Shown here: positions 19,382 through 49,056 of the stretch, piece by piece
Position numbering within the stretch: position 1 is the first letter of the stretch
Layout: each line of letters begins with the position of its first letter
From: Minisyncoccota bacterium
Lineage (GTDB): Bacteria > Patescibacteriota > Minisyncoccia > Phycocordibacterales > UBA9973
Assembly (NCBI GenBank): GCA_035438585.1
Contig: DAORIO010000001.1
Coordinates: forward strand, 1-49,056
Direction: 5' to 3'
DNA length: 49,056 nt
The notes under the pieces: generated by a model
What the model was told of the DNA's origin: nothing
Databases searched by the model: none
What the model saw: only the letters and a program-made list of their open reading frames with translations
Position numbers and translations under genes: made by a program

Positions 19382-19531
19382 CAAATTTGGACGATAGGAC
19401 AATTTGTCCGCCCAAGCGAGACATCTGCTTGTCTCGCGCCTAGGAATCGAAAAGCTTTTCATTATTTTCGAAGAGCTTTGCTCTCCGAAAATTGAAAAGG
19501 TATACTGTTCGCGTAGCGAAAGATTCCTAGT
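19382..19531 (+). ncRNA. tRNA-trailing structured element, copy 1 (host tRNA-Lys)
   Basis: AATTTGTCCGCCCA (19401-19414) is the exact reverse complement of the tRNA 3' end plus trailer at 19374-19387. Hairpin GCGAGACA/TGTCTCGC has a CTGC-containing loop (19416-19437). CTAGGAATCGAA (19440-19451) is the exact reverse complement of the T-arm at 19362-19373. The conserved core hairpin spans 19452-19500. GGTATACTG follows, then P4 TTCGC-GTA-GCGAA (19508-19520). The sense copy GATTCCTAGT (19522-19531) is identical to 19365-19374. Confidence 0.75.
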
Positions 19532-19590
19532 ATTTCGGCTCGCGAGATTTTTTCGTCAGAAAAAATACTTGTGAGGATAAACTTATTTTT

Positions 19591-20058
19591 ATGAAAATCA
19601 CCATAATTTTAGACAACATCCGTAGCTCCGAAAATGTCGGGTCTATTTTTCGAACCTCTGACGCAGTTGGGGTAGATAAAATATATCTTATTGGAATAAC
19701 TCCAAATCCACTTGATCGTTTTGGTAGACCAAATCCAAAAATAGAAAAAGCATCTTTAGGCGCAGAGAAAACTATTCCATGGGAGCATTTTGAAAATATA
19801 ACGGAAGTTATAGAAAGCCTTAAGAAAGAAGGTTATAAAATTGTTTCACTCGAGCAAAATGAGAAATCGATTGATTATCGAGATTTGAAAATAAAAGAAA
19901 AAATTGCTCTTATTGTAGGTAATGAGGTTAGCGGTGTTTCAATAGATGCGCAAAATGAAAGTGATGAAATAATAGAAATACCAATGGCGGGGAATAAAGA
20001 ATCTCTCAACGTTTCAGTTGCTACGGGTGTTGCTTTATTTTCACTCCTTAAGAAATAG
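19591..20058 (+). CDS. SpoU/TrmH-family RNA 2'-O-methyltransferase (short form)
   Basis: ENVGSIFRTSDAVG, GNEVSGVS, IPMAGNKESLNVSVATGVALF. Confidence 0.8.
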   Translation: MKITIILDNIRSSENVGSIFRTSDAVGVDKIYLIGITPNPLDRFGRPNPKIEKASLGAEKTIPWEHFENITEVIESLKKEGYKIVSLEQNEKSIDYRDLKIKEKIALIVGNEVSGVSIDAQNESDEIIEIPMAGNKESLNVSVATGVALFSLLKK

Positions 20059-25347: not shown

Positions 25348-25522
25348 GTGATCCCGGTAGGGTAATCTTTCGTTACACGAACAGTATACCTTTTTGGCAA
25401 ACTCAGAACGAGTTCTTCGTTTACATCGAAAAGCTTTTCGATTCCTACACAGACGACGAGCAGTCGTCGTCCTCGGGATCACCAAATAAAAATGGCCACC
25501 AAATGGTGACTCATTTTTAAAC
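25348..25522 (-). ncRNA. tRNA-trailing structured element, copy 2 (host tRNA-Arg GCG)
   Basis: Read on the minus strand, the parts in order are as follows. TGGTGATCCCG is antisense to the acceptor 3' strand including CCA. Hairpin GACGACGA-CTGC-TCGTCGTC (25452-25471). GTAGGAATCGAA is the exact antisense of the T-arm (25437-25448). The core is AAGCTTTTCGATGTAAACGAAGAACTCGTTCTGAGTTTGCCAAAAAGG. GGTATACTG follows, then P4 TTCGT-GTA-ACGAA. The sense decoy is GATTACCCTACCGGGATCAC (25348-25368). Confidence 0.75.
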
Positions 25523-26140: not shown

Positions 26141-26875
26141 TTATTTTCTCAAGTTTTCAGGCAATGCATTGTATGCTTCAGTTATCTTTTGAGATAATTC
26201 TTTTTTGATCGCATCAATTTCTTTGTTTCTAGTAGCTGTAAGTTGGGCAATTTCAAGCTTTGATCTTCTTAGGAAAGAAGATTTTGCCATTCCGCGGTCT
26301 TTCATTTTTTTGATTGTATCGAGTTCGTCTTTTATTTTTTCTTCAAACAATCCAGTGCACAAAACTTTAAGCGTTCCAAGGCGGTTTTTTGATTCAGTTT
26401 CTATATCTTTGAAATATGTTTCACTAGAAGAATCTTGTTTTGAAAGAGAAAGGAGTGTGTCGCGTTCGTATTTTTCCCAAGCAATATCTGTTTTGTTTCT
26501 TGCATTAGACAGGAGATCAAAAAGAGTTTTTTCAAAATTTTCTACTGCTTTTTTGTCGGCGTCGGTTTGCGCTTTTGTCATAAGATGAATGACAAATTTT
26601 TTATATATTGAGTCGACACGATTTCTTTCTTGGGTAAATTGCTCGCTTCTTTTTGACCATTCTTGTTTTATATCTTCGGTTCTTTTTTCTCGAGATTTTA
26701 GAACTTCTTCTCTGATTTTACTTTGTTCTTTTTTTATATCAGATTCAATTTTTGAAATTTTCTGGCACACAGATGAAGACCCGCCGTTTGAGGCGAAAGT
26801 TTGAATAGGCGTAAAAAGCACTGAAACAAGCACAAGAAAAACGATTATTGATTTTTTGTTAGAAATTTTCTCCAT
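26141..26875 (-). CDS. Secreted coiled-coil protein
   Basis: Signal peptide. K/E-rich heptad-like sequence. 17-nt overlap with the upstream gene. Confidence 0.5.
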   Translation of the reverse strand: MEKISNKKSIIVFLVLVSVLFTPIQTFASNGGSSSVCQKISKIESDIKKEQSKIREEVLKSREKRTEDIKQEWSKRSEQFTQERNRVDSIYKKFVIHLMTKAQTDADKKAVENFEKTLFDLLSNARNKTDIAWEKYERDTLLSLSKQDSSSETYFKDIETESKNRLGTLKVLCTGLFEEKIKDELDTIKKMKDRGMAKSSFLRRSKLEIAQLTATRNKEIDAIKKELSQKITEAYNALPENLRK

Positions 26876-27392
26876 AGTAATTTACAAAATTATTAACTCC
26901 TGTTTCATCGTAAGTCGCAAATTTTTCATCGGACGAATTTGAATAAGTTGAAAATTCTTCTTCTGTAATTGTTTGGAAATCTTCTTGTTGAAAATTTTCA
27001 TTTGCAGGTGCGGACATTTTCATTAAAGAATTTTCTTGCACTGAATTGTCGGCTACTTCATTTTGAACCAACGCAAAAGAACTCGCACTATCTGTCGTAG
27101 GTTCTAAAATAGGGTCAGCGTTTGGTTGTAAATTATTTTTTACAGAAAGTCCGACGATTAATATCACAGCCAAAGCAGGGACAGAGATTTTGAAAAACAT
27201 TGGAATGTAAAACGGAGACTTGGTTGGGTTAGAGTTTTGAGGTAGTGTTTCTTCTCCTAGCATTTTCATTGCCTTCAAAAAAGATTCATGCGGAGCTTTT
27301 ATTTCTTTTCTTAGATTTTGGAGTTGAGAAATAACCTGCAAGTCTTTTGCATCAAATTCTTCATTATTTTGTTGTGGTATTTCTTTATTCAT
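26859..27392 (-). CDS. Putative anti-sigma factor (single-pass membrane protein)
   Basis: Overlaps the stop of the ECF sigma gene by 8 nt. Central TM helix ISVPALAVILIVGLSV. Confidence 0.4.
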   Translation of the reverse strand: MNKEIPQQNNEEFDAKDLQVISQLQNLRKEIKAPHESFLKAMKMLGEETLPQNSNPTKSPFYIPMFFKISVPALAVILIVGLSVKNNLQPNADPILEPTTDSASSFALVQNEVADNSVQENSLMKMSAPANENFQQEDFQTITEEEFSTYSNSSDEKFATYDETGVNNFVNYYGENF

Positions 27393-27933
27393 AGTCTTTT
27401 ATATTTTCTCTTAAAGCTTTTATTCCACGCGAGAGTAGTTGCCGAACTGCTTCTTCGCTTTTTCCCATAATTTCCGATATGTCTTTGGCGGGAAGGTCTT
27501 CGACATATCTGAGCGTCAGGGCTTCTCTTTGTTCTTCGGACAGTTTTTCGATCATATCCTTAAAGTCGAGTCCCAGTTCTTTTTTGTCTTCAGCTTGATT
27601 TTCGCTTTCGATCATTACCACTTCGTCGCTTACTATCGTGTTTCTGGTGCCACGTTTCCGCCAGTAGTCGATAAGGGTGTTTCGGGCGATGGTGAATATG
27701 AAGCTTGGCAGGGAAATGGTTTGGGTTATTTTTGTGAGGTTTGCGTAAAACTTTACAAAGGAGGTTTGGGTCAAATCTACCGCCTCGTCGTCATTTTGGG
27801 TTCGCATAAAAAAGTAGCGATAGAGCGGGGAGTAGAAATACTTGTATATTTCGTCCTGCGCCGTAACAGAGCCATCTCTGGCCTCATCAAACAGCTTCTT
27901 TAGTTTTTCGTGGTCATTAGCTCTTTCAGACAT
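27385..27933 (-). CDS. ECF-type RNA polymerase sigma factor
   Basis: Region 2 (YRYFFMRTQNDDEAVDLTQTSFVKFY). Region 4 HTH (REALTLRYVEDLPAKDISEIMGKSEEAVRQLLSRG). I take the start at ATG 27933, because the track's TTG extension runs into the terminator at 27996-28025. Confidence 0.8.
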   Translation of the reverse strand: MSERANDHEKLKKLFDEARDGSVTAQDEIYKYFYSPLYRYFFMRTQNDDEAVDLTQTSFVKFYANLTKITQTISLPSFIFTIARNTLIDYWRKRGTRNTIVSDEVVMIESENQAEDKKELGLDFKDMIEKLSEEQREALTLRYVEDLPAKDISEIMGKSEEAVRQLLSRGIKALRENIKDYE

Positions 27934-27993
27934 AATAACGCATATTATACTGTATTTGTGATGGGTGGAAACAGGAAATATGCTCCAAAACAA

Positions 27994-28026
27994 AAACAAC
28001 CACTATTCCAGGTAGTGGTTGTTTTC
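27994..28026 (-). terminator. Terminator after the DUF1801-like gene
   Basis: ACAACCACTA/TAGTGGTTGT stem (27996-28022), flanked by A and T runs. Confidence 0.7.
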
Positions 28027-28065
28027 AGTTATTTATTTAAATTTAAACAAGATTTTTGTTAGTGG

Positions 28066-28497
28066 TTAAGTCTTAGTTTTATATTTTTTCTTCATATCCG
28101 CAACAGATTTTTTGATGAGTATTTTTAGGGTAGGGATATGAACATTTTCTAGTTTTTTAATATATAAGCAAGATCCACCACTTGTTTTGTGCGGACCGAT
28201 TTTTTCAAGTAAATCCCCGTATCCTTTAAATCCCGGCATTATGTAAATTGTTATTCCTGTTGCTCTTGGGGAAAATGCGATAAGTGGCCAATCTCCCTCT
28301 TGGGAAGAACGATCAGATTTGTAATGATACTCACCAAAACCAACAATGCTTTCGCCCCACATTGTAGGTTTTAGTTTTGTCGTTTCTTCAAAAATACTAA
28401 GTAGTTTTAAAGAATCATTTCTTTTTTGTTCGTCTTTTATAGTTTTAATAAATTTTTTTGGTGGAACTTTGGTTGGTTTTGTTTTTACTTCTGCCAT
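28066..28497 (-). CDS. DUF1801 (YdhG-like) domain protein
   Basis: 143 aa. Pattern ...MWGESIVGFGEYHYKS...LIAFSPRATGITIY... is typical of this family. Confidence 0.55.
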   Translation of the reverse strand: MAEVKTKPTKVPPKKFIKTIKDEQKRNDSLKLLSIFEETTKLKPTMWGESIVGFGEYHYKSDRSSQEGDWPLIAFSPRATGITIYIMPGFKGYGDLLEKIGPHKTSGGSCLYIKKLENVHIPTLKILIKKSVADMKKKYKTKT

Positions 28498-28537
28498 ATG
28501 GATTTAATATAACATACCGAAAAAGAAGAGGAGAAAA

Positions 28538-28570
28538 ATAAAAGACCGTCCAATCGGACAGTCTTTGTTT
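28538..28570 (-). terminator. Rho-independent terminator
   Basis: AGACCGTCC/GGACAGTCT stem with a T-run on the minus strand. Confidence 0.65.
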
Positions 28571-28586
28571 TAGGTTCAGTCTTAAT

Positions 28587-29273
28587 TTATACATGCGGTA
28601 TTCCCATATAATGTTCAATGAACATTATATTCGCAGGATTTTTTATTACCGCTGAGGTAACGTCAAAAATATAAGCTATTGTTTCGCCATATTCACGAAA
28701 CGTTTTTTGATGTTCTTTTGATAATGCATCGTAATGCTTTTTAAGTTTTTCATAAAATACTTCACCTTCAGTATTCCAAGCTGGAATATTAATTACATCT
28801 TTTTCCAATTCCATGGCTACTTTTTCTAACCCTTCAGTTTCTTTAGATATATTCATAATAAAACGAAATATTTTTTTAATGAAAGCGTTTAGTTTTTCAG
28901 AATTCATAAAAAGATTAATAATAAAGAGTGGTAATAAGCAAAGAAGTAGGGCAATCCAAATTAGAAAAATAGTAATAACTGGAATTACACCAAAAACTGA
29001 TACCATGAAAGCTTTGTCAGATGATGAAAAGTGGTTAACCAGCAGAACGATAATAGTAAGCCCGATTACATAGATTCCAAAATATTTTAATAGGCGGAAG
29101 TTATCCCTCGCTTCTTGGGTTTTGTACTTTGTATATGCTTCAATGTAAGCAGATGTTTTTTGAAGTGCAATCTGGAAATACTCAATTTTGTTGTCGGGAA
29201 TAATTCCCAAGCTGAGCAAATAGGTAAGTGCTATTTGTTCACGTTCGCTTAGTGATTTTTTATCTTTTTTCAT
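28587..29273 (-). CDS. Membrane protein, unknown function
   Basis: ORF track. Three central TM helices. Confidence 0.5.
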   Translation of the reverse strand: MKKDKKSLSEREQIALTYLLSLGIIPDNKIEYFQIALQKTSAYIEAYTKYKTQEARDNFRLLKYFGIYVIGLTIIVLLVNHFSSSDKAFMVSVFGVIPVITIFLIWIALLLCLLPLFIINLFMNSEKLNAFIKKIFRFIMNISKETEGLEKVAMELEKDVINIPAWNTEGEVFYEKLKKHYDALSKEHQKTFREYGETIAYIFDVTSAVIKNPANIMFIEHYMGIPHV

Positions 29274-29345
29274 TTTTTAAAGAGTTTAGATTATTTGTGT
29301 AAATTGTACGTTATATAGCTAAATATGTAAATGTGTCGTCAAAAG

Positions 29346-29374
29346 TTGACAAATAAACTCGTTTGGCGTAGCAT
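29346..29374 (+). promoter_or_regulatory. Promoter TTGACA-N17-TAGCAT, 6 nt before the ATG (leaderless-type)
   Basis: TTGACA 29346-29351, TAGCAT 29369-29374, ATG 29381. Confidence 0.55.
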
Positions 29375-29380
29375 TAAAAC

Positions 29381-30160
29381 ATGAGTCAAAATATACAGGA
29401 TATAGTAATTAATATTGGATTAAACAAAGCCGAAGCCACTACTTTTTCGGTCCTTATGCAATATCCTGATGGTATGTCTGTTCTAGAATTGAGTCGAGAA
29501 TTAAATTTACCTCGTCCAACAATATACTCACACCTCGAGGAGCTTTTTAAGATTGGAATTGCTAAAAAGGGGTTACATGAAAATACCTCCGTCGTATATC
29601 CTGAGTCAAAAGAAATTATTGAAAGTATATTTGAAGAAAAAATTGCTTCATTAAAAAAATCAAAAGAACATCTTTCGTTGAGTTTTGATAATAAAAAAAG
29701 TATTACAAAATTTAAGCCGAAGTTTTTTGTATATGAAGGGCAAAATGCTTACGAACAAGTGTGGCGAGATATCCTTAGAACAAGAGAAGATTCTTATTGG
29801 GTTTGGCCTGTTAAGGGAATGCTTGAGAAGGGGATTTCAGTAGAAAAAATAAAAGAATTTCACGAGGAAAGAATAAAGAGAAATATTGTTATGAATGTTT
29901 TGTGGCCTGAAAGAATGAAATTAGATATTGAAAAATCTCCGTTCCTTATTTCTTCTGATGAAAAAATTTCTTTACGAAAAATCCGTATCTTACCTAAGGA
30001 GCTCGATCAAGATGTTGGATATGGTATTTATGGAAACAGGGTTGCTTTTATTTCAGCTGGATCGGAGAACTATGCTTTTGTGGTAGAAAGTAAAGAGTTG
30101 ACAAAAACTCTTAAAAATCAATTTGATTTCTTTTGGGGAATTTCTAAGAAGTATTTGTAG
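29381..30160 (+). CDS. TrmB-family transcriptional regulator
   Basis: N-terminal wHTH: GLNKAEATTFSVLMQYPDGMSVLELSRELNLPRPTIYSHLEELFKIGIAKK. Confidence 0.7.
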   Translation: MSQNIQDIVINIGLNKAEATTFSVLMQYPDGMSVLELSRELNLPRPTIYSHLEELFKIGIAKKGLHENTSVVYPESKEIIESIFEEKIASLKKSKEHLSLSFDNKKSITKFKPKFFVYEGQNAYEQVWRDILRTREDSYWVWPVKGMLEKGISVEKIKEFHEERIKRNIVMNVLWPERMKLDIEKSPFLISSDEKISLRKIRILPKELDQDVGYGIYGNRVAFISAGSENYAFVVESKELTKTLKNQFDFFWGISKKYL

Positions 30161-30186
30161 TTGGTTGTGTGTTTGATTGTTGTAGT

Positions 30187-30355
30187 GCGGCGAGAGTTTC
30201 GAACCTTACAGGTTCAGTACACCTTTTCAATTTACTTAGAGCAAAGCTCCTCGTAAATAATGAAAAGCTTTTCGAATCTCGCACGTACGGCACGCAGGTG
30301 TCGTACTCGCCTCCGCATATAAAAAAGACCCGAAATATCGGGTCTTTTTTATATG
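30187..30355 (-). ncRNA. tRNA-trailing structured element, copy 3 (host tRNA-Ser)
   Basis: Read on the minus strand, the parts in order are as follows. A terminator hairpin is extended into a perfect 25-bp palindrome (30308-30332 / 30339-30363) that includes the acceptor 3' strand. Hairpin GTACGACAC-CTGC-GTGCCGTAC. GCGAGATTCGAA is the exact antisense of the T-arm (30271-30282). The core is AAGCTTTTCATTATTTACGAGGAGCTTTGCTCTAAGTAAATTGAAAAGG. GGTGTACTG follows, then P4 AACCT-GTA-AGGTT. The sense decoy is GTTCGAAACTCTCGCCGC. Confidence 0.75.
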
Positions 30356-30442
30356 CGGAGGCGGCGAGATTCGAACTCGCGGTACGGTTTCCCATACAAC
30401 AGTTTTCAAGACTGTCGCCTTCAACCACTCAGCCACACCTCC
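30356..30442 (-). tRNA. tRNA-Ser (anticodon UGA), type II with long variable arm, no encoded CCA
   Basis: GGAGGTG/CGCCTCC acceptor, loop CTTGAAA, long extra arm, T arm GCGAG-TTCGAAT-CTCGC. Confidence 0.85.
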
Positions 30443-30449
30443 GAGATTT

Positions 30450-30478
30450 AGATTACTGTATTTTCGTTTTTTTCTCAA
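30450..30478 (-). promoter_or_regulatory. Promoter TTGAGA-N17-TAATCT placing the start site at or next to the tRNA-Ser 5' end
   Basis: Complement of 30473-30478 = TTGAGA. Complement of 30450-30455 = TAATCT. 7 nt remain to the G at position +1 of the tRNA (30442). Confidence 0.5.
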
Positions 30479-30492
30479 GTTTTTGTAAATAA

Positions 30493-30521
30493 TAAAAACC
30501 ACCCAAAGCAGGGCGGTTTTT
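30493..30521 (-). terminator. Rho-independent terminator
   Basis: AACCACCC/GGGCGGTT stem (one mismatch) with a T-run on the minus strand. Confidence 0.6.
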
Positions 30522-30822
30522 AGATTTTGAAGTCAATATGTTCTTCTTCTTTTTGATTTTCGCTTCTTGTGGTTGCGACAGATTTTTCAAAAAGTTTTTT
30601 TATTGGACGTTTAAATACTTGAGAAACTCTTTCTTTTGAAACTTTGGCAACTTTGAAAAGATACCAGATATCCAATATAGAAAGAGTGTTTAAAAGAAGT
30701 AGGGCAACAAACCATCCACGGTCTCCGTTTCTGGCGGCTGTCCAGACAGAAAAGATTTTCCAAATCAATGTCCAGAAGCTTAAAAGAAAAATGACTATAA
30801 ATATAATTGTTTCGTCGTGCAC
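30520..30822 (-). CDS. Small two-TM membrane protein
   Basis: ORF track, GTG start. IIFIVIFLLSFWTLIW and WFVALLLLNTLSILDIWYLF helices. Confidence 0.5.
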   Translation of the reverse strand: MHDETIIFIVIFLLSFWTLIWKIFSVWTAARNGDRGWFVALLLLNTLSILDIWYLFKVAKVSKERVSQVFKRPIKKLFEKSVATTRSENQKEEEHIDFKI

Positions 30823-30879
30823 GAAAGAATTATACCAAGCGTTTATTTAAAAGGCTATATTTATGGTATATTCCAAGTT

Positions 30880-31266
30880 ATGAAATACTTGGGAATTGAT
30901 TTTGGGGGTAAAAATATTGGAGTTGCTGTTTCAGATGATGGTGGCCAGATTGCTTTTCCGTTCAAGACACTAAAAAATGAAGGAGGGCTTATAACTTCAA
31001 TAAAACAAATTTGTCTTTCTGAAAATATAGAAACAATAGTTTTGGGAAAATCGATTAATGACCAAGGAGAGCCAAATCAAATTCAAAAACAAATTGAAAA
31101 TTTTAGAGAAGTGCTTATTGCAGAAGTTAAGTTGCCGGTTAAATGGCAAAATGAAAGTTTTTCGTCTGTGCATGTTTTAGATGATGCCAAAGGTCGAGAT
31201 GGGGGAGATCATGCTCAGGCGGCCGCGCTAATACTTCAGAGATTTTTAGAGAGAGTAAATTCTTGA
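30880..31266 (+). CDS. ruvX: Putative pre-16S rRNA nuclease / Holliday junction resolvase-like YqgF
   Basis: MKYLGIDFGGKNIGVAVSD. I take the start at ATG 30880, with extended -10 TGgTATATT 7 nt upstream. Ends with TGA. Confidence 0.8.
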   Translation: MKYLGIDFGGKNIGVAVSDDGGQIAFPFKTLKNEGGLITSIKQICLSENIETIVLGKSINDQGEPNQIQKQIENFREVLIAEVKLPVKWQNESFSSVHVLDDAKGRDGGDHAQAAALILQRFLERVNS

Positions 31267-34761: not shown

Positions 34762-34763
34762 CA

Positions 34764-34806
34764 AAACAAAAAACACTACTTAGATTATGAGTAGTGTTTT
34801 TTGTTT
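34764..34806 (+). terminator. 17-bp terminator hairpin after tRNA-Arg(UCU)
   Basis: AAACAAAAAACACTACT (34764-34780) / AGTAGTGTTTTTTGTTT (34790-34806). Confidence 0.7.
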
Positions 34807-34810
34807 ACTA

Positions 34811-34990
34811 TTTTGTCCCTGCCAGGAATCGAACCGAAGGCGCTAATTTTTAAGGAGCGAAGCGACTATAAAAATTAAGCGTTTCGACCGCAGGGAGAGG
34901 CGATTCCTGTACTGACCCTGTAAGGGTCGATATCCTGGCGGGGAAATTAAGCGTTTCGACCGTAGGGGGAAGCGATTCCTGGCCGGCAAT
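34811..34990 (+). ncRNA. tRNA-trailing structured element, variant copy (host tRNA-Arg UCU) with an internal 37-nt duplication
   Basis: TGTCCCTGCCAGGAATCGAACC (34814-34835) is a near reverse complement of the tRNA 3' end. A different long hairpin spans 34839-34881. The shared module is GTACTG + ACCCT-GTA-AGGGT + CGATATCCTGGCGGGG (34909-34943). A 37-nt direct repeat lies at 34873-34909 and 34945-34981 (3 mismatches). Each repeat unit ends in GCGATTCCTG. Confidence 0.65.
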
Positions 34991-35126: not shown

Positions 35127-35265
35127 CATGAGCCATGCGAATGGCCGGTAGTGAGTGAACTGCTTCACTCACGTAGGATTTGAAGAGCTTTTCATTATTT
35201 ACGAAGAGCTCTGCTCTGAGAAAATTGAAAAGGTGTACTGAAGCTGTAAGCTTCTAATCCCTTAC
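35127..35265 (+). ncRNA. tRNA-trailing structured element, copy 4 (host tRNA-Val)
   Basis: Hairpin GCCAT-GCGA-ATGGC. Degenerate anti-acceptor CCGGTA. Hairpin GTGAGTGAA-CTGC-TTCACTCAC (35151-35172). GTAGGATTTGAA (35173-35184) is antisense to the T-arm with a 2-nt deletion. The core is GAGCTTTTCATTATTTACGAAGAGCTCTGCTCTGAGAAAATTGAAAAGG. GGTGTACTG follows, then P4 AAGCT-GTA-AGCTT. The sense copy AATCCCTTAC (35256-35265) is identical to 35111-35120. Confidence 0.75.
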
Positions 35266-44167: not shown

Positions 44168-44171
44168 CAAA

Positions 44172-44200
44172 TAAAAAATCCTATTTTGTAGGATTTTTTA
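44172..44200 (+). terminator. Terminator after tRNA-Leu
   Basis: AATCCTA-TTTTG-TAGGATT, then T6. Confidence 0.75.
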
Positions 44201-44367
44201 TTTTAAGCGAAGATTTGAACGGGAAAGGGGTCGGGAAAACGGTAGTTTTCCTGTGGAGGAGGCAGTGACATTGAGCTTGTCGAAGTGGAGCGTTGGAACC
44301 GCCTGGTTCCAAAACACAGCGAGTTTACGAGCGAGTAGTGAAATTCTCCCCCTGCGCACAAATAAAA
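44201..44367 (+). ncRNA. tRNA-trailing element, divergent-core variant (host tRNA-Leu)
   Basis: AGATTTGAAC (44211-44220) is the reverse complement of the T-loop/stem. Three unrelated hairpins follow: GGAAAAC/GTTTTCC, GACA/TGTC and GGAACC/GGTTCC. The element ends in GTGAAATTCTCCCCCTGCGCACAAATAAAAAAT (44337-44369). That stretch is a 29/33 copy of the tRNA 3' end plus trailer. Confidence 0.6.
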
Positions 44368-44400
44368 AATACCCAAAATATTTTGGGTATTTTTTATTTT
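44364..44400 (+). terminator. Second terminator, following the decoy tRNA-Leu 3' end
   Basis: ATACCCAAAA-TA-TTTTGGGTAT, then T-run. Confidence 0.7.
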
Positions 44401-48957: not shown

Positions 48958-48961
48958 TAAA

Positions 48962-48988
48962 AAAAGACCGGACAAGCGGCTTTTTTAT
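48962..48988 (+). terminator. Weak terminator-like hairpin after tRNA-His
   Basis: AGACCG...CGGCT (5 bp with one bulge), then T6. Confidence 0.35.
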
Positions 48989-49056
48989 TTGGGTTACTAA
49001 GCGAGCAAAATCTGTATCTTTATGGGATAATTTTTAGGTTAAGACTAAAAAGACAT

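Follow-up and report, generated by a model that had tools for sequence, protein, structure and literature searches.

A perfect palindrome at the junction of a tRNA-Ser gene with a recurring, folded tRNA-trailing element of Patescibacteria

We analyzed a stretch of 49,056 nt from a Minisyncoccota bacterium (assembly GCA_035438585.1, contig DAORIO010000001.1, positions 1 to 49,056; here called the window), in which a tRNA-Ser(UGA) gene on the minus strand runs into a long palindrome and, beyond it, into a small noncoding element that trails the tRNA (Table 1). An earlier note on this DNA, made from the letters alone, had described the palindrome as 25 bp with a 6-nt loop; it is the same structure with one more pair, that is, 26-nt arms that are 100% complementary around a 4-nt loop. 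In an inverted-repeat search it was the longest perfect hairpin of the window, whereas the longest perfect stem arising by chance in 30 first-order Markov simulations of the window was 8 to 14 nt. The palindrome is real and lies far beyond chance. On the minus strand the tRNA ends with ...GCGAGUUCGAAUCUCGC CGCCUCC G, and the sequence continues C AUAU AAAAAA GACCCGA UAUU UCGGGUC UUUUUU AUAU G CGGAGGCG. As the earlier note had it, the right arm takes in the last 8 nt of tRNA-Ser, namely, the acceptor 3' strand (30357-30363) and the discriminator G (30356), and the palindrome joins this acceptor strand, a terminator, and a recurring trailing element. Beyond the discriminator, the right arm consists of C and AUAU, followed by one terminator half. 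The inner 30 nt of the palindrome make up the terminator, predicted from sequence to be intrinsic, with a 7-bp GC-rich stem, a short loop, A6 before the stem, and U6 after it. A simple terminator scan of the window did not list it, probably because the longer stem takes in the U-tract. Other terminators of the window (I3, I7, and I8) share the symmetric A/T-tract design over 16 to 20 perfect pairs. The unusual part of the palindrome is its outer 13 pairs, in which the trailer CAUAU and CGCCUCCG face their exact mirror.

A noncoding element of approximately 170 nt (30186-30354, minus strand) has the mirror copy of the tRNA end as its 5' edge. Its parts follow one another as an antisense of the acceptor strand (anti-acceptor), a hairpin with a CUGC loop (P1a), an antisense of the T-arm (anti-T), a conserved three-way core (P3, a joiner, and P4), and a decayed direct copy of the tRNA 3' end (X2). 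The tRNA segment that the element copies in both orientations is X1. The X2 of the Ser copy (CGAAACUCUCGCCGCA) corresponds to tRNA positions ~56 to 73, has an internal deletion in its acceptor part, and scores 9/16 as a decoy. Every component that had been reported downstream of the palindrome (the CUGC hairpin, the exact T-arm antisense, the conserved core, and the degenerate decoy) is present. Three open reading frames (ORFs) that had been marked as lying on noncoding structure (30144-30428, 30169-30492, and 30236-30502) have no Pfam match and sit over the tRNA gene and the structured repeat, and we regard them as spurious. When folded alone, the element is predicted to form the terminator hairpin, P1a, P3, and P4. 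P1a contains one A.C mismatch here and is perfect in L127, a contig from a near-identical strain. A hammerhead ribozyme was considered and rejected, as the core is off the consensus by eye and the motif CUGA..CGAAAC occurs in the Ser copy only and is not conserved. The flanking genes encode a DUF5652 protein (30520-30822, minus strand) and a TrmB-type helix-turn-helix regulator (29381-30160, plus strand). The regulator gene is convergent with the element, its stop codon lies approximately 25 nt from X2, and its sole terminator is the shared palindrome.

Table 1. Features of the tRNA-Ser(UGA) locus and related units elsewhere in the window
Feature	Position	Strand	Basis
Palindrome as reported, 26-nt perfect arms, 4-nt loop	30308-30333 / 30338-30363	either	Repeat search, simulation control
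tRNA-Ser(UGA), no encoded CCA	30356-30442	-	ARAGORN (30355-30442); Rfam RF00005, 58.4 bits
Bidirectional intrinsic terminator (predicted): A6, GACCCGA, AAUA loop, UCGGGUC, U6	30321-30350	both strands alike	Sequence
X1, tRNA positions 54-73: T-loop UUCGAAU, T-stem 3' strand CUCGC, acceptor 3' strand CGCCUCC, discriminator G	30356-30375	-	Complementary to 30271-30282 and 30308-30316
Anti-acceptor GCGGAGGCG, exact reverse complement of acceptor 3' strand, discriminator, and next base	30308-30316	-	Inverted repeat
P1a hairpin, 9 bp, CUGC loop	30285-30306	-	Covariance model (element copy, 109 bits)
Anti-T GCGAGAUUCGAA, 12/12 antisense of T-loop and T-stem 3' strand (30364-30375)	30271-30282	-	Inverted repeat I9
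Conserved core: AAG CUUUUC, variable hairpin, GAAAAG, GUGUACUG, 5-bp hairpin with GUA loop	30202-30270	-	
P3, base CUUUUC/GAAAAG closing a variable, covarying hairpin	30223-30267	-	Alignment, covariation
Joiner GURUACUG, invariant (here GUGUACUG)	30215-30222	-	Invariant alignment columns
P4 hairpin, 5 bp, invariant GUA triloop	30202-30214	-	All 5 pairs compensatory, 98% paired
X2 ("decoy") CGAAACTCTCGCCGCA, degenerate second copy of tRNA 3' end	30186-30201	-	Sequence comparison
Sister copy after tRNA-Lys(UUU)	19416-19524	+	Covariance model, 106.4 bits
Sister copy after tRNA-Arg(GCG), anti-acceptor and X2 intact	25365-25472	-	Covariance model, 107.4 bits
Sister copy after tRNA-Val(UAC), acceptor-derived parts lost	35151-35257	+	Covariance model, 96.9 bits
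Divergent relative after tRNA-Arg(UCU)	34842-34931	+	Covariance model, 18.7 bits, E = 0.009

The element is not peculiar to tRNA-Ser. Four canonical copies in the window (Ser, Lys, Arg(GCG), and Val) score 97 to 109 bits against a covariance model built from the family, each of them directly after a tRNA, and the flanks of the Lys, Arg(GCG), and Val units match their own tRNA and not tRNA-Ser. The relative after tRNA-Arg(UCU) has a contiguous antisense of the tRNA 3' end and a different middle but the same GUACUG-P4-X2 end, and behind tRNA-Leu(GAG) an 11/12 antisense of the tRNA's own T-arm adjoins a different core. Past the tRNA-His terminator, positions 48958-49056 (plus strand) hold GGGTTACTA, which is 8/9 complementary to the acceptor end, then AGCGAGCAAAATCTG.., a degenerate P1a, and the window ends before the remainder of this unit. 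With the canonical copies and the Arg(UCU), Leu, and His variants taken together, a unit of this kind stands behind each of the seven tRNAs of the window. The Arg(UCU) unit (34763-34950, plus strand) and the Leu(GAG) unit (44169-44360, plus strand) both begin with the antisense of their own T-arm and finish with a direct copy of the 3' end; their differing middles suggest several core families with one flank design. The Leu unit terminates in a perfect 20+20 palindromic terminator (44360-44399).

Relatives of the element were found in other genomes. We refer to compared contigs or loci by L-numbers, among which L124 to L127 are near-identical strain contigs matching window positions 26381-30381. 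A scan with an exact pattern, using one genome per species, returned at least the matches listed, and among these the true matches were almost all in Patescibacteria metagenome-assembled genomes (MAGs), with labels including Saccharibacteria, Nomurabacteria, Paceibacterota, Parcubacteria, and Azambacteria. The covariance model identified 123 copies in the 94 sequences searched (the window and 93 contigs), and the element-bearing contigs in this set were again nearly all labelled as Patescibacteria MAGs. The coding DNA of the window is 65 to 72% identical to that of several element loci, which have the tRNA order in common with it, and the window is accordingly placed in a member of this group. 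We detected no viral copies with the exact pattern in 2.9 million IMG/VR viral contigs, where only chance matches inside a protein-coding gene were hit. In searches of Rfam 15 at gathering and permissive thresholds, only the seven tRNAs of the window passed and nothing credible was reported for positions 29800-30900 at E values up to 10; no intron or ribozyme family of Rfam matched the element. Full-text literature searches found no description of it. The family is widespread in Patescibacteria and apparently undescribed.

Covariation across the family supports the proposed structure. In the alignment of the 123 copies, 95.8% of cells are paired, compared to 66% in shuffles, and 25 of 27 pairs have changed on both sides, including compensatory changes in all nine pairs of P1a. 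When partners were slid by 1 to 3 columns, pairing fell to 43 to 64% and the covariation score fell from 0.68 to 0.07 to 0.12. These results identify P1a, distal P3, and P4 as real helices. The base of P3 is read as CUUUUC:GAAAAG based on the variants CUUUAC:GUAAAG (L079) and CUUUUG:CAAAAG (L108); these support a register that is entirely Watson-Crick and speak against the one with G.U pairs given by RNAalifold. In the variable helices of the best 80 copies, there are 37 G.U but 13 A.C oppositions when the tRNA-sense strand is read, which points to the tRNA-sense strand as the one that folds. An RNA from the opposite strand, which the A.C mismatch in the Ser copy had brought to mind, was rejected in view of the perfect stem of L127 and the family-wide G.U excess. 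G.U pairs make up 2.2% of element pairs; in stems of the tRNAs at these loci they reach 4.7%, and A.C accounts for 0.2% there. Such figures are compatible with an RNA under light constraint and equally with a single strand of DNA that folds. A short form of the element, which has no terminator or anti-acceptor, follows tRNA-Thr(GGU) in a syntenic Saccharibacteria tRNA cluster (L009, L038, L074, L082, L104, L115, and L117), where the tRNA has an unusual T-loop, UCCGAUU. X2 is perfect in six of eight copies of the short form and matches at 14/16 and 11/16 in the remaining two.

The tRNA-derived parts of each copy match the tRNA behind which that copy lies. The tRNA-linked set comprises the 53 copies directly following a tRNA, with 20 different anticodons represented. 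Anti-T is complementary to the copy's own tRNA at all 12 positions in 23 of these and at 10 or more in 39, and 566 of its 612 pairs are Watson-Crick. The anti-acceptor matches at 8/8 in 16 copies and the acceptor part of X2 at 8/8 in 27. The direct repeat formed by X1 and X2 runs from about position 57 to N73 plus a further 1 to 7 nt. Anti-T is better complementary to X1 than to X2 in 29 copies, versus 5 with the opposite preference, and the anti-T:X2 helix has no G.U bias (GT, 10; AC, 16). A palindrome with at least 7 of 8 anti-acceptor positions was found at 26 of 52 tRNAs with a core (4 in the control) versus 9 of 75 without one (3 in the control), which ties the anti-acceptor palindrome to the element and not to Patescibacteria terminators generally. 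The earlier note had named, as the result that would speak against it, loss of the palindrome in relatives with substitutions in the tRNA-Ser acceptor stem. Instead, the anti-acceptor varies with the tRNA and stays complementary: Ser isoacceptors have the pairs CGCCUCC/GGAGGCG, UCUCUCC/GGAGAGA, CUCCUCC/GGAGGAG, and AUCCUCC/GGAGGAU, and with different acceptors paired to matching anti-acceptors, that loss is not what we see. The 5' strand of the element is the Watson-Crick complement of the 3' strand and not a copy of the tRNA 5' strand. Elements of tRNA-Ala read GGA.., and A3-U70 replaces the G3.U70 identity pair of tRNA-Ala. Most of the tRNA genes in L001 to L117 and the window do not encode CCA, yet approximately 40 of the 53 trailers begin with CA (CAA, CAU, or CAG), and X2 mostly retains the C(A) of the trailer. 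An origin of X2 from mature, CCA-tailed tRNA was rejected for lack of signal, CCA being found in X2 in only three copies and in X1 in only three.

The palindromes themselves bear marks of processes acting on DNA. At many loci they are strictly Watson-Crick even in the functionless trailer, with 23 to 27 pairs at seven tRNA-linked loci, that of the window included. In copies without an upstream tRNA body (L113, L107, L095, L085, and L069), the left arm still mirrors the anti-acceptor, and the mirroring reaches the foot of P1a or stops within a few nucleotides of it. Strain contig L127, which is 99.5% identical to the window over 1 kb, carries AAAU...AUUU in place of AUAU...AUAU in the window, a double change mirrored between the arms, and its 4-nt loop is the reverse complement of the window loop. 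We attribute these differences to templating or recombination between the arms, as two independent compensating mutations are unlikely. The Watson-Crick arms, the changes in L127, and the copies without a tRNA together indicate templating or recombination at the DNA level rather than selection on an RNA helix.

The distribution of the element resembles that of inserted DNA. Within the same loci, 75 of 127 tRNAs have no canonical core, approximately 60 of those also having no anti-T, and a tRNA species that is followed by the element in one genome can lack it in another. About one-third of copies lack an immediately preceding tRNA; among copies of this kind, the next gene upstream has the same orientation in 11 and the opposite one in 7. 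For six copies without an adjacent tRNA, a matching, co-oriented tRNA lies 0.65 to 5.2 kb upstream, with accessory genes in between. Accessory genes separate the tRNA from the antisense segment in L004, L010, L048, L113, and L114, and L079 likewise has an islet of them between a tRNA and its distal element. This enclosed cargo includes DUF4238, a zeta-toxin-like P-loop kinase, DUF4037, a CopA/CsoR copper module, an ACP-like ORF, and coiled-coil proteins. In L004, a 95-nt block containing the tRNA end, terminator, anti-acceptor, P1a, and anti-T is duplicated on both sides of 1.3 kb of cargo. L079 contains an array with the order tRNA, element, X, gene, element, X, and tandem units occur in L102, L108, and L115. 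Two tRNA-Glu loci of a single MAG share a 99%-identical block whose limits are exactly the tRNA 5' end and the X2 end. Many contigs from the genome scan start or stop within approximately 300 nt of an element, and in three contigs of strains nearly identical to the window organism, the sequence breaks off or is rearranged within it. Among the strain contigs, L124 and L126 stop in the element, and L125 and L127 run on into different sequence. In L125, a 27-nt tRNA 3' fragment next to smpB is joined to another P1a, anti-acceptor, and terminator, the result of either recombination at the element or chimeric assembly.

The interpretation that we favor, tentatively and with somewhat less than even confidence, is that the palindrome is the junction of tRNA-Ser with a nonautonomous integrative module that is specific for tRNA 3' ends and folds as a single strand. 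Direct repeats of the 3' end flank the putative insert and the tRNA is left intact, as in tRNA-targeting integrative elements, and the exact antisense of X1, the strand-biased mismatches, the covariation, and the predicted fold fit a folded single-strand site. The linear order of the units is constant: the tRNA, whose end is X1; a body; an antisense of X1 that P1a interrupts; the core (P3, joiner, and P4); and X2. The body is minimally a bidirectional terminator, at times accompanied by 0.5 to 5 kb of accessory genes. The DNA from X1 to P4 would be the insertion, bringing with it a replacement tRNA 3' end and a terminator, and X2 would be the displaced original 3' end, which would decay afterwards. 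Through the inverted copy, the tRNA-sense single strand could fold into a duplex mimicking the 3' end of the tRNA gene, with P1a as a bulge and P3/P4 as the terminal structure. By analogy with CTX-phage attP(+) and integron attC, this fold may be the attachment site of a recombinase acting in trans. The 26-bp palindrome would then be the attachment stem, with its inner 17 bp doubling as the tRNA terminator, and hairpin-templated DNA repair or arm-to-arm recombination could keep it perfect. What the sequences show is how the units are built, that they form a family, that their helices covary and their flanks match particular tRNAs, that they stand behind some tRNAs and not others, that they occur in arrays and enclose cargo, and that the palindrome differs between strains; the direction of insertion, the single-stranded DNA intermediate, and the recombinase are the parts of this scheme that we infer.

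Several observations weigh against such a module. Within 3.5 kb of the elements we found no enrichment of integrases, transposases, or reverse transcriptases, and no recognizable recombinase or integrase lies in the enclosed cargo. In close relatives, neither an excised form nor an unambiguous pair of empty and filled sites was found, the strain contigs breaking or rearranging in the element; the contigs with which the palindrome was compared between strains are short assemblies from metagenomes that may be chimeric beyond the palindrome. A single-stranded circle of 170 nt would have no obvious replication route, and one core family would have had to come to match more than 20 different tRNAs. 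The P3 sequence common to the Lys, Ser, and Val copies of the window does not occur in the Ser elements of other compared genomes (e.g., L001 and L027), and a near-identical P3 is present in L021, so that recombination between copies or retargeting would be needed. Compensatory change keeps the structure at syntenic loci (the tRNA-Thr(GGU) series and the window Ser copy versus L001), which also fits a host-beneficial RNA, and in tRNA-Thr operons the element is necessarily cotranscribed with the tRNAs.

A cis-acting RNA made together with the tRNA, from the same strand, is the alternative suggested by these last points, and we give it a lower but appreciable probability. Folded at P1a, P3, and P4 and with its antisense paired to the tRNA 3' half or to the spare copy downstream, such an RNA would act on its own tRNA transcript at the level of folding, 3' processing, stability, or termination; it might, for example, tag read-through precursors for degradation or serve as a tRNA-like processing site. 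The palindrome would then be the RNA helix of the earlier note. The folding strand is indeed tRNA-sense, and every element has the orientation of its tRNA; the strong compensatory changes at syntenic loci suggest selection in place; and anti-T keeps its complementarity to the tRNA while X2 decays. The element also stands between co-oriented tRNAs in the Saccharibacteria tRNA-Thr operons, with both copies of the 3' end perfectly kept, and a unit follows every tRNA of L108 as well as all seven in the window. The read-through transcript has a very stable predicted fold (minimum free energy of -135 kcal/mol, z = -12.5), in which the mirror is paired to the stretch from the T-loop and T 3' strand through the acceptor 3' strand and trailer to the terminator, and P1a forms a branch. 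The earlier note had proposed that the acceptor strand would be locked in this helix upon read-through. The long helix is borne out by the prediction, but the terminator lies inside the palindrome, so that most transcripts should end before the anti-acceptor and the lock should be at best a minor RNA species; it is possible but not the best explanation. The same difficulty applies to any cis-acting RNA, which would rarely be made from the majority of copies, where a good terminator precedes the antisense, and which has no obvious promoter in copies with divergent upstream genes. The majority of tRNAs in related genomes do without the element, G.U pairs are scarce and A.C mismatches are not rare, and the anti-T:X2 helix has no G.U bias. 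The palindrome arms are Watson-Crick even in the trailer, and the loop is flipped between strains. Arrays and enclosed cargo genes would be unexpected for a processing signal.

Other RNA-based readings are less probable. One that we regard as improbable is a structured transcript, specific to each tRNA, that would provide an antisense splint over the T-loop and acceptor plus a spare tRNA 3' half; with it, tRNA 3' ends could be repaired, replaced, or provided with a decoy (e.g., against tRNA-cleaving toxins), or maturation could be gated. We find it very hard to credit the element as a mimic of tRNA, in which anti-acceptor:X2 and anti-T:X2 would close an acceptor/T minihelix that is recognized, CCA-tailed, or charged and acts as a decoy or donor. 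The order of its parts mirrors a tRNA, from an acceptor 5'-like strand through one hairpin, a T 5'-like strand, an insert where the T-loop would be, the T 3' strand, and the acceptor 3' strand to the discriminator, and both closing helices are strong in approximately 20 copies (P1, -14 to -20 kcal/mol), but in three of the four canonical window copies (Ser, Lys, and Val) the acceptor helix cannot form, and X2 is the least conserved part of the element. The complementary 5' strand costs the tRNA-Ala elements their identity pair, and these copies contradict a chargeable mimic. An intervening sequence in the T-loop has next to no standing. It would have mature tRNA made of positions 1 to 56 plus X2, with X1 to P4 removed and anti-T as an internal guide aligning the exons. 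Anti-T does span the putative junction as the complement of positions 54 to 65 (X2 begins at about 57), X2 is perfect in most short tRNA-Thr copies, and in the read-through fold X1 lies within the rod and the 5' end of the tRNA is paired to the region of X2. However, every tRNA is already completed by X1, X2 is degenerate in most long-form copies, including the Ser copy, and Rfam offers no matching intron or ribozyme. For the 41 copies without a detectable tRNA, 265,032 trial joins produced no upstream 5' part that needed X2, which speaks against both the intron and a split tRNA. No more plausible is an ordinary bidirectional terminator unconnected with the element, whose arms would have grown longer by chance or through neutral mutation templated by the hairpin. 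Near-palindromes are known to be corrected by templated mutation, and other terminators of the window are perfectly symmetric over 16 to 20 nt. The 26 perfect pairs nevertheless exceed the simulated range, the extension is complementary to the acceptor strand and is followed by a 12/12 T-arm antisense, and the arrangement recurs at many tRNAs; its association with the core contradicts a plain terminator.

In known tRNA-targeting integrative elements, insertion occurs in the 3' part of the gene, the tRNA stays intact, the far direct repeat decays, and arrays form with accessory genes between the repeats. The family described here shares its insertion site, intact tRNA, decaying repeat, arrays, and cargo with such elements, with genomic islands, and with cis-mobilizable elements (CIMEs). 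Unlike these, it has no integrase beside any copy, a minimal unit of approximately 150 to 200 nt, an additional inverted copy of the tRNA end that is split by a hairpin, and a core that covaries, which the arms of double-stranded attachment (att) sites do not. Integron attC sites are also conserved in structure rather than sequence and fold from one strand, with imperfect inverted repeats and variable terminal structures, and arrays of a gene plus a folded site at a fixed attachment point, as in L079, recall integron gene cassettes. Unlike in integrons, we see no IntI, attI, or R/L core boxes; the stems copy the neighboring tRNA, and most units are gene-less.

Another comparison is the attP(+) site of CTX phage, for which single-stranded phage DNA folds into a forked hairpin mimicking dif and is integrated by host XerC/D through one strand exchange (PMC3442271, PMC4246890). 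The order of site, body, inverted site, spacer, and site after integration is the same, no recombinase is encoded by the element, the stem has a bulge or unpaired region, and the folded strand here may likewise imitate a duplex target. The targets differ, many tRNA 3' ends instead of dif, and no phage genome or replication module accompanies our element; attP(+) recombines, and for our element recombination is a proposal. Small intergenic repeats that form hairpins include the Correia, repetitive extragenic palindromic (REP), and bacterial interspersed mosaic (BIME) elements (reviewed in PMC3184786). The element is similar to such repeats and to miniature transposable elements with inverted repeats (MITEs) in being small, noncoding, multicopy, intergenic, prone to break assemblies, and able to supply terminators. 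In contrast to MITEs and REPs, its inverted and direct terminal repeats vary by copy and equal the sequence of its own target tRNA, its site and orientation specificity is strict, and it has a three-way-junction core with invariant joiners. As for bidirectional intrinsic terminators, the inner 30 nt of the palindrome are a textbook example, but no terminator needs the 13 further perfect pairs that extend into the acceptor strand.

Patescibacteria have tiny, streamlined genomes, yet approximately 170 nt of conserved, folded DNA lie behind every tRNA in these 49 kb, and relatives of the element extend across Saccharibacteria, Paceibacteria/Parcubacteria, and Nomurabacteria. If the units are mobile attachment modules, they would represent a recombination system without an adjacent recombinase that inserts terminators and small cassettes (e.g., DUF4238, copper export, or a zeta-toxin-like kinase) behind tRNA genes. 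Genes would move by this route in a group whose mobile elements have been little mapped, and the system might serve as a tool for site-specific insertion in organisms that resist genetics. If they are RNAs, they would constitute a tRNA-specific layer of regulation or repair, and the guide with its spare 3' half, if true, would be a tRNA-specific RNA-guided system without a known counterpart. In practice, the elements break metagenome assemblies, create spurious ORFs, and can mislead tRNA and terminator prediction, and a covariance model of the element would be a worthwhile addition to annotation pipelines.

Two further sequence features accompany the family. About a quarter of its members (e.g., L030, L032, L050, L094, and L102) carry an optional 14-nt insert, AAGCGUACUCGCGG, in the T-loop part of X2, which repeats the GUACU motif of the conserved joiner. 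A second recurring module lies at window positions 19545-19600 (plus strand) and consists of ..GAAGACGSAGG, a hairpin, CGAGCYGGGGTCGCGAG, an A/T-rich hairpin, and ACTTGTGACC.. in this order. This module adjoins tRNA-trailing elements, being found between the tRNA and the element in L086, L101, L110, and L114 as well, and may be another repeat family.

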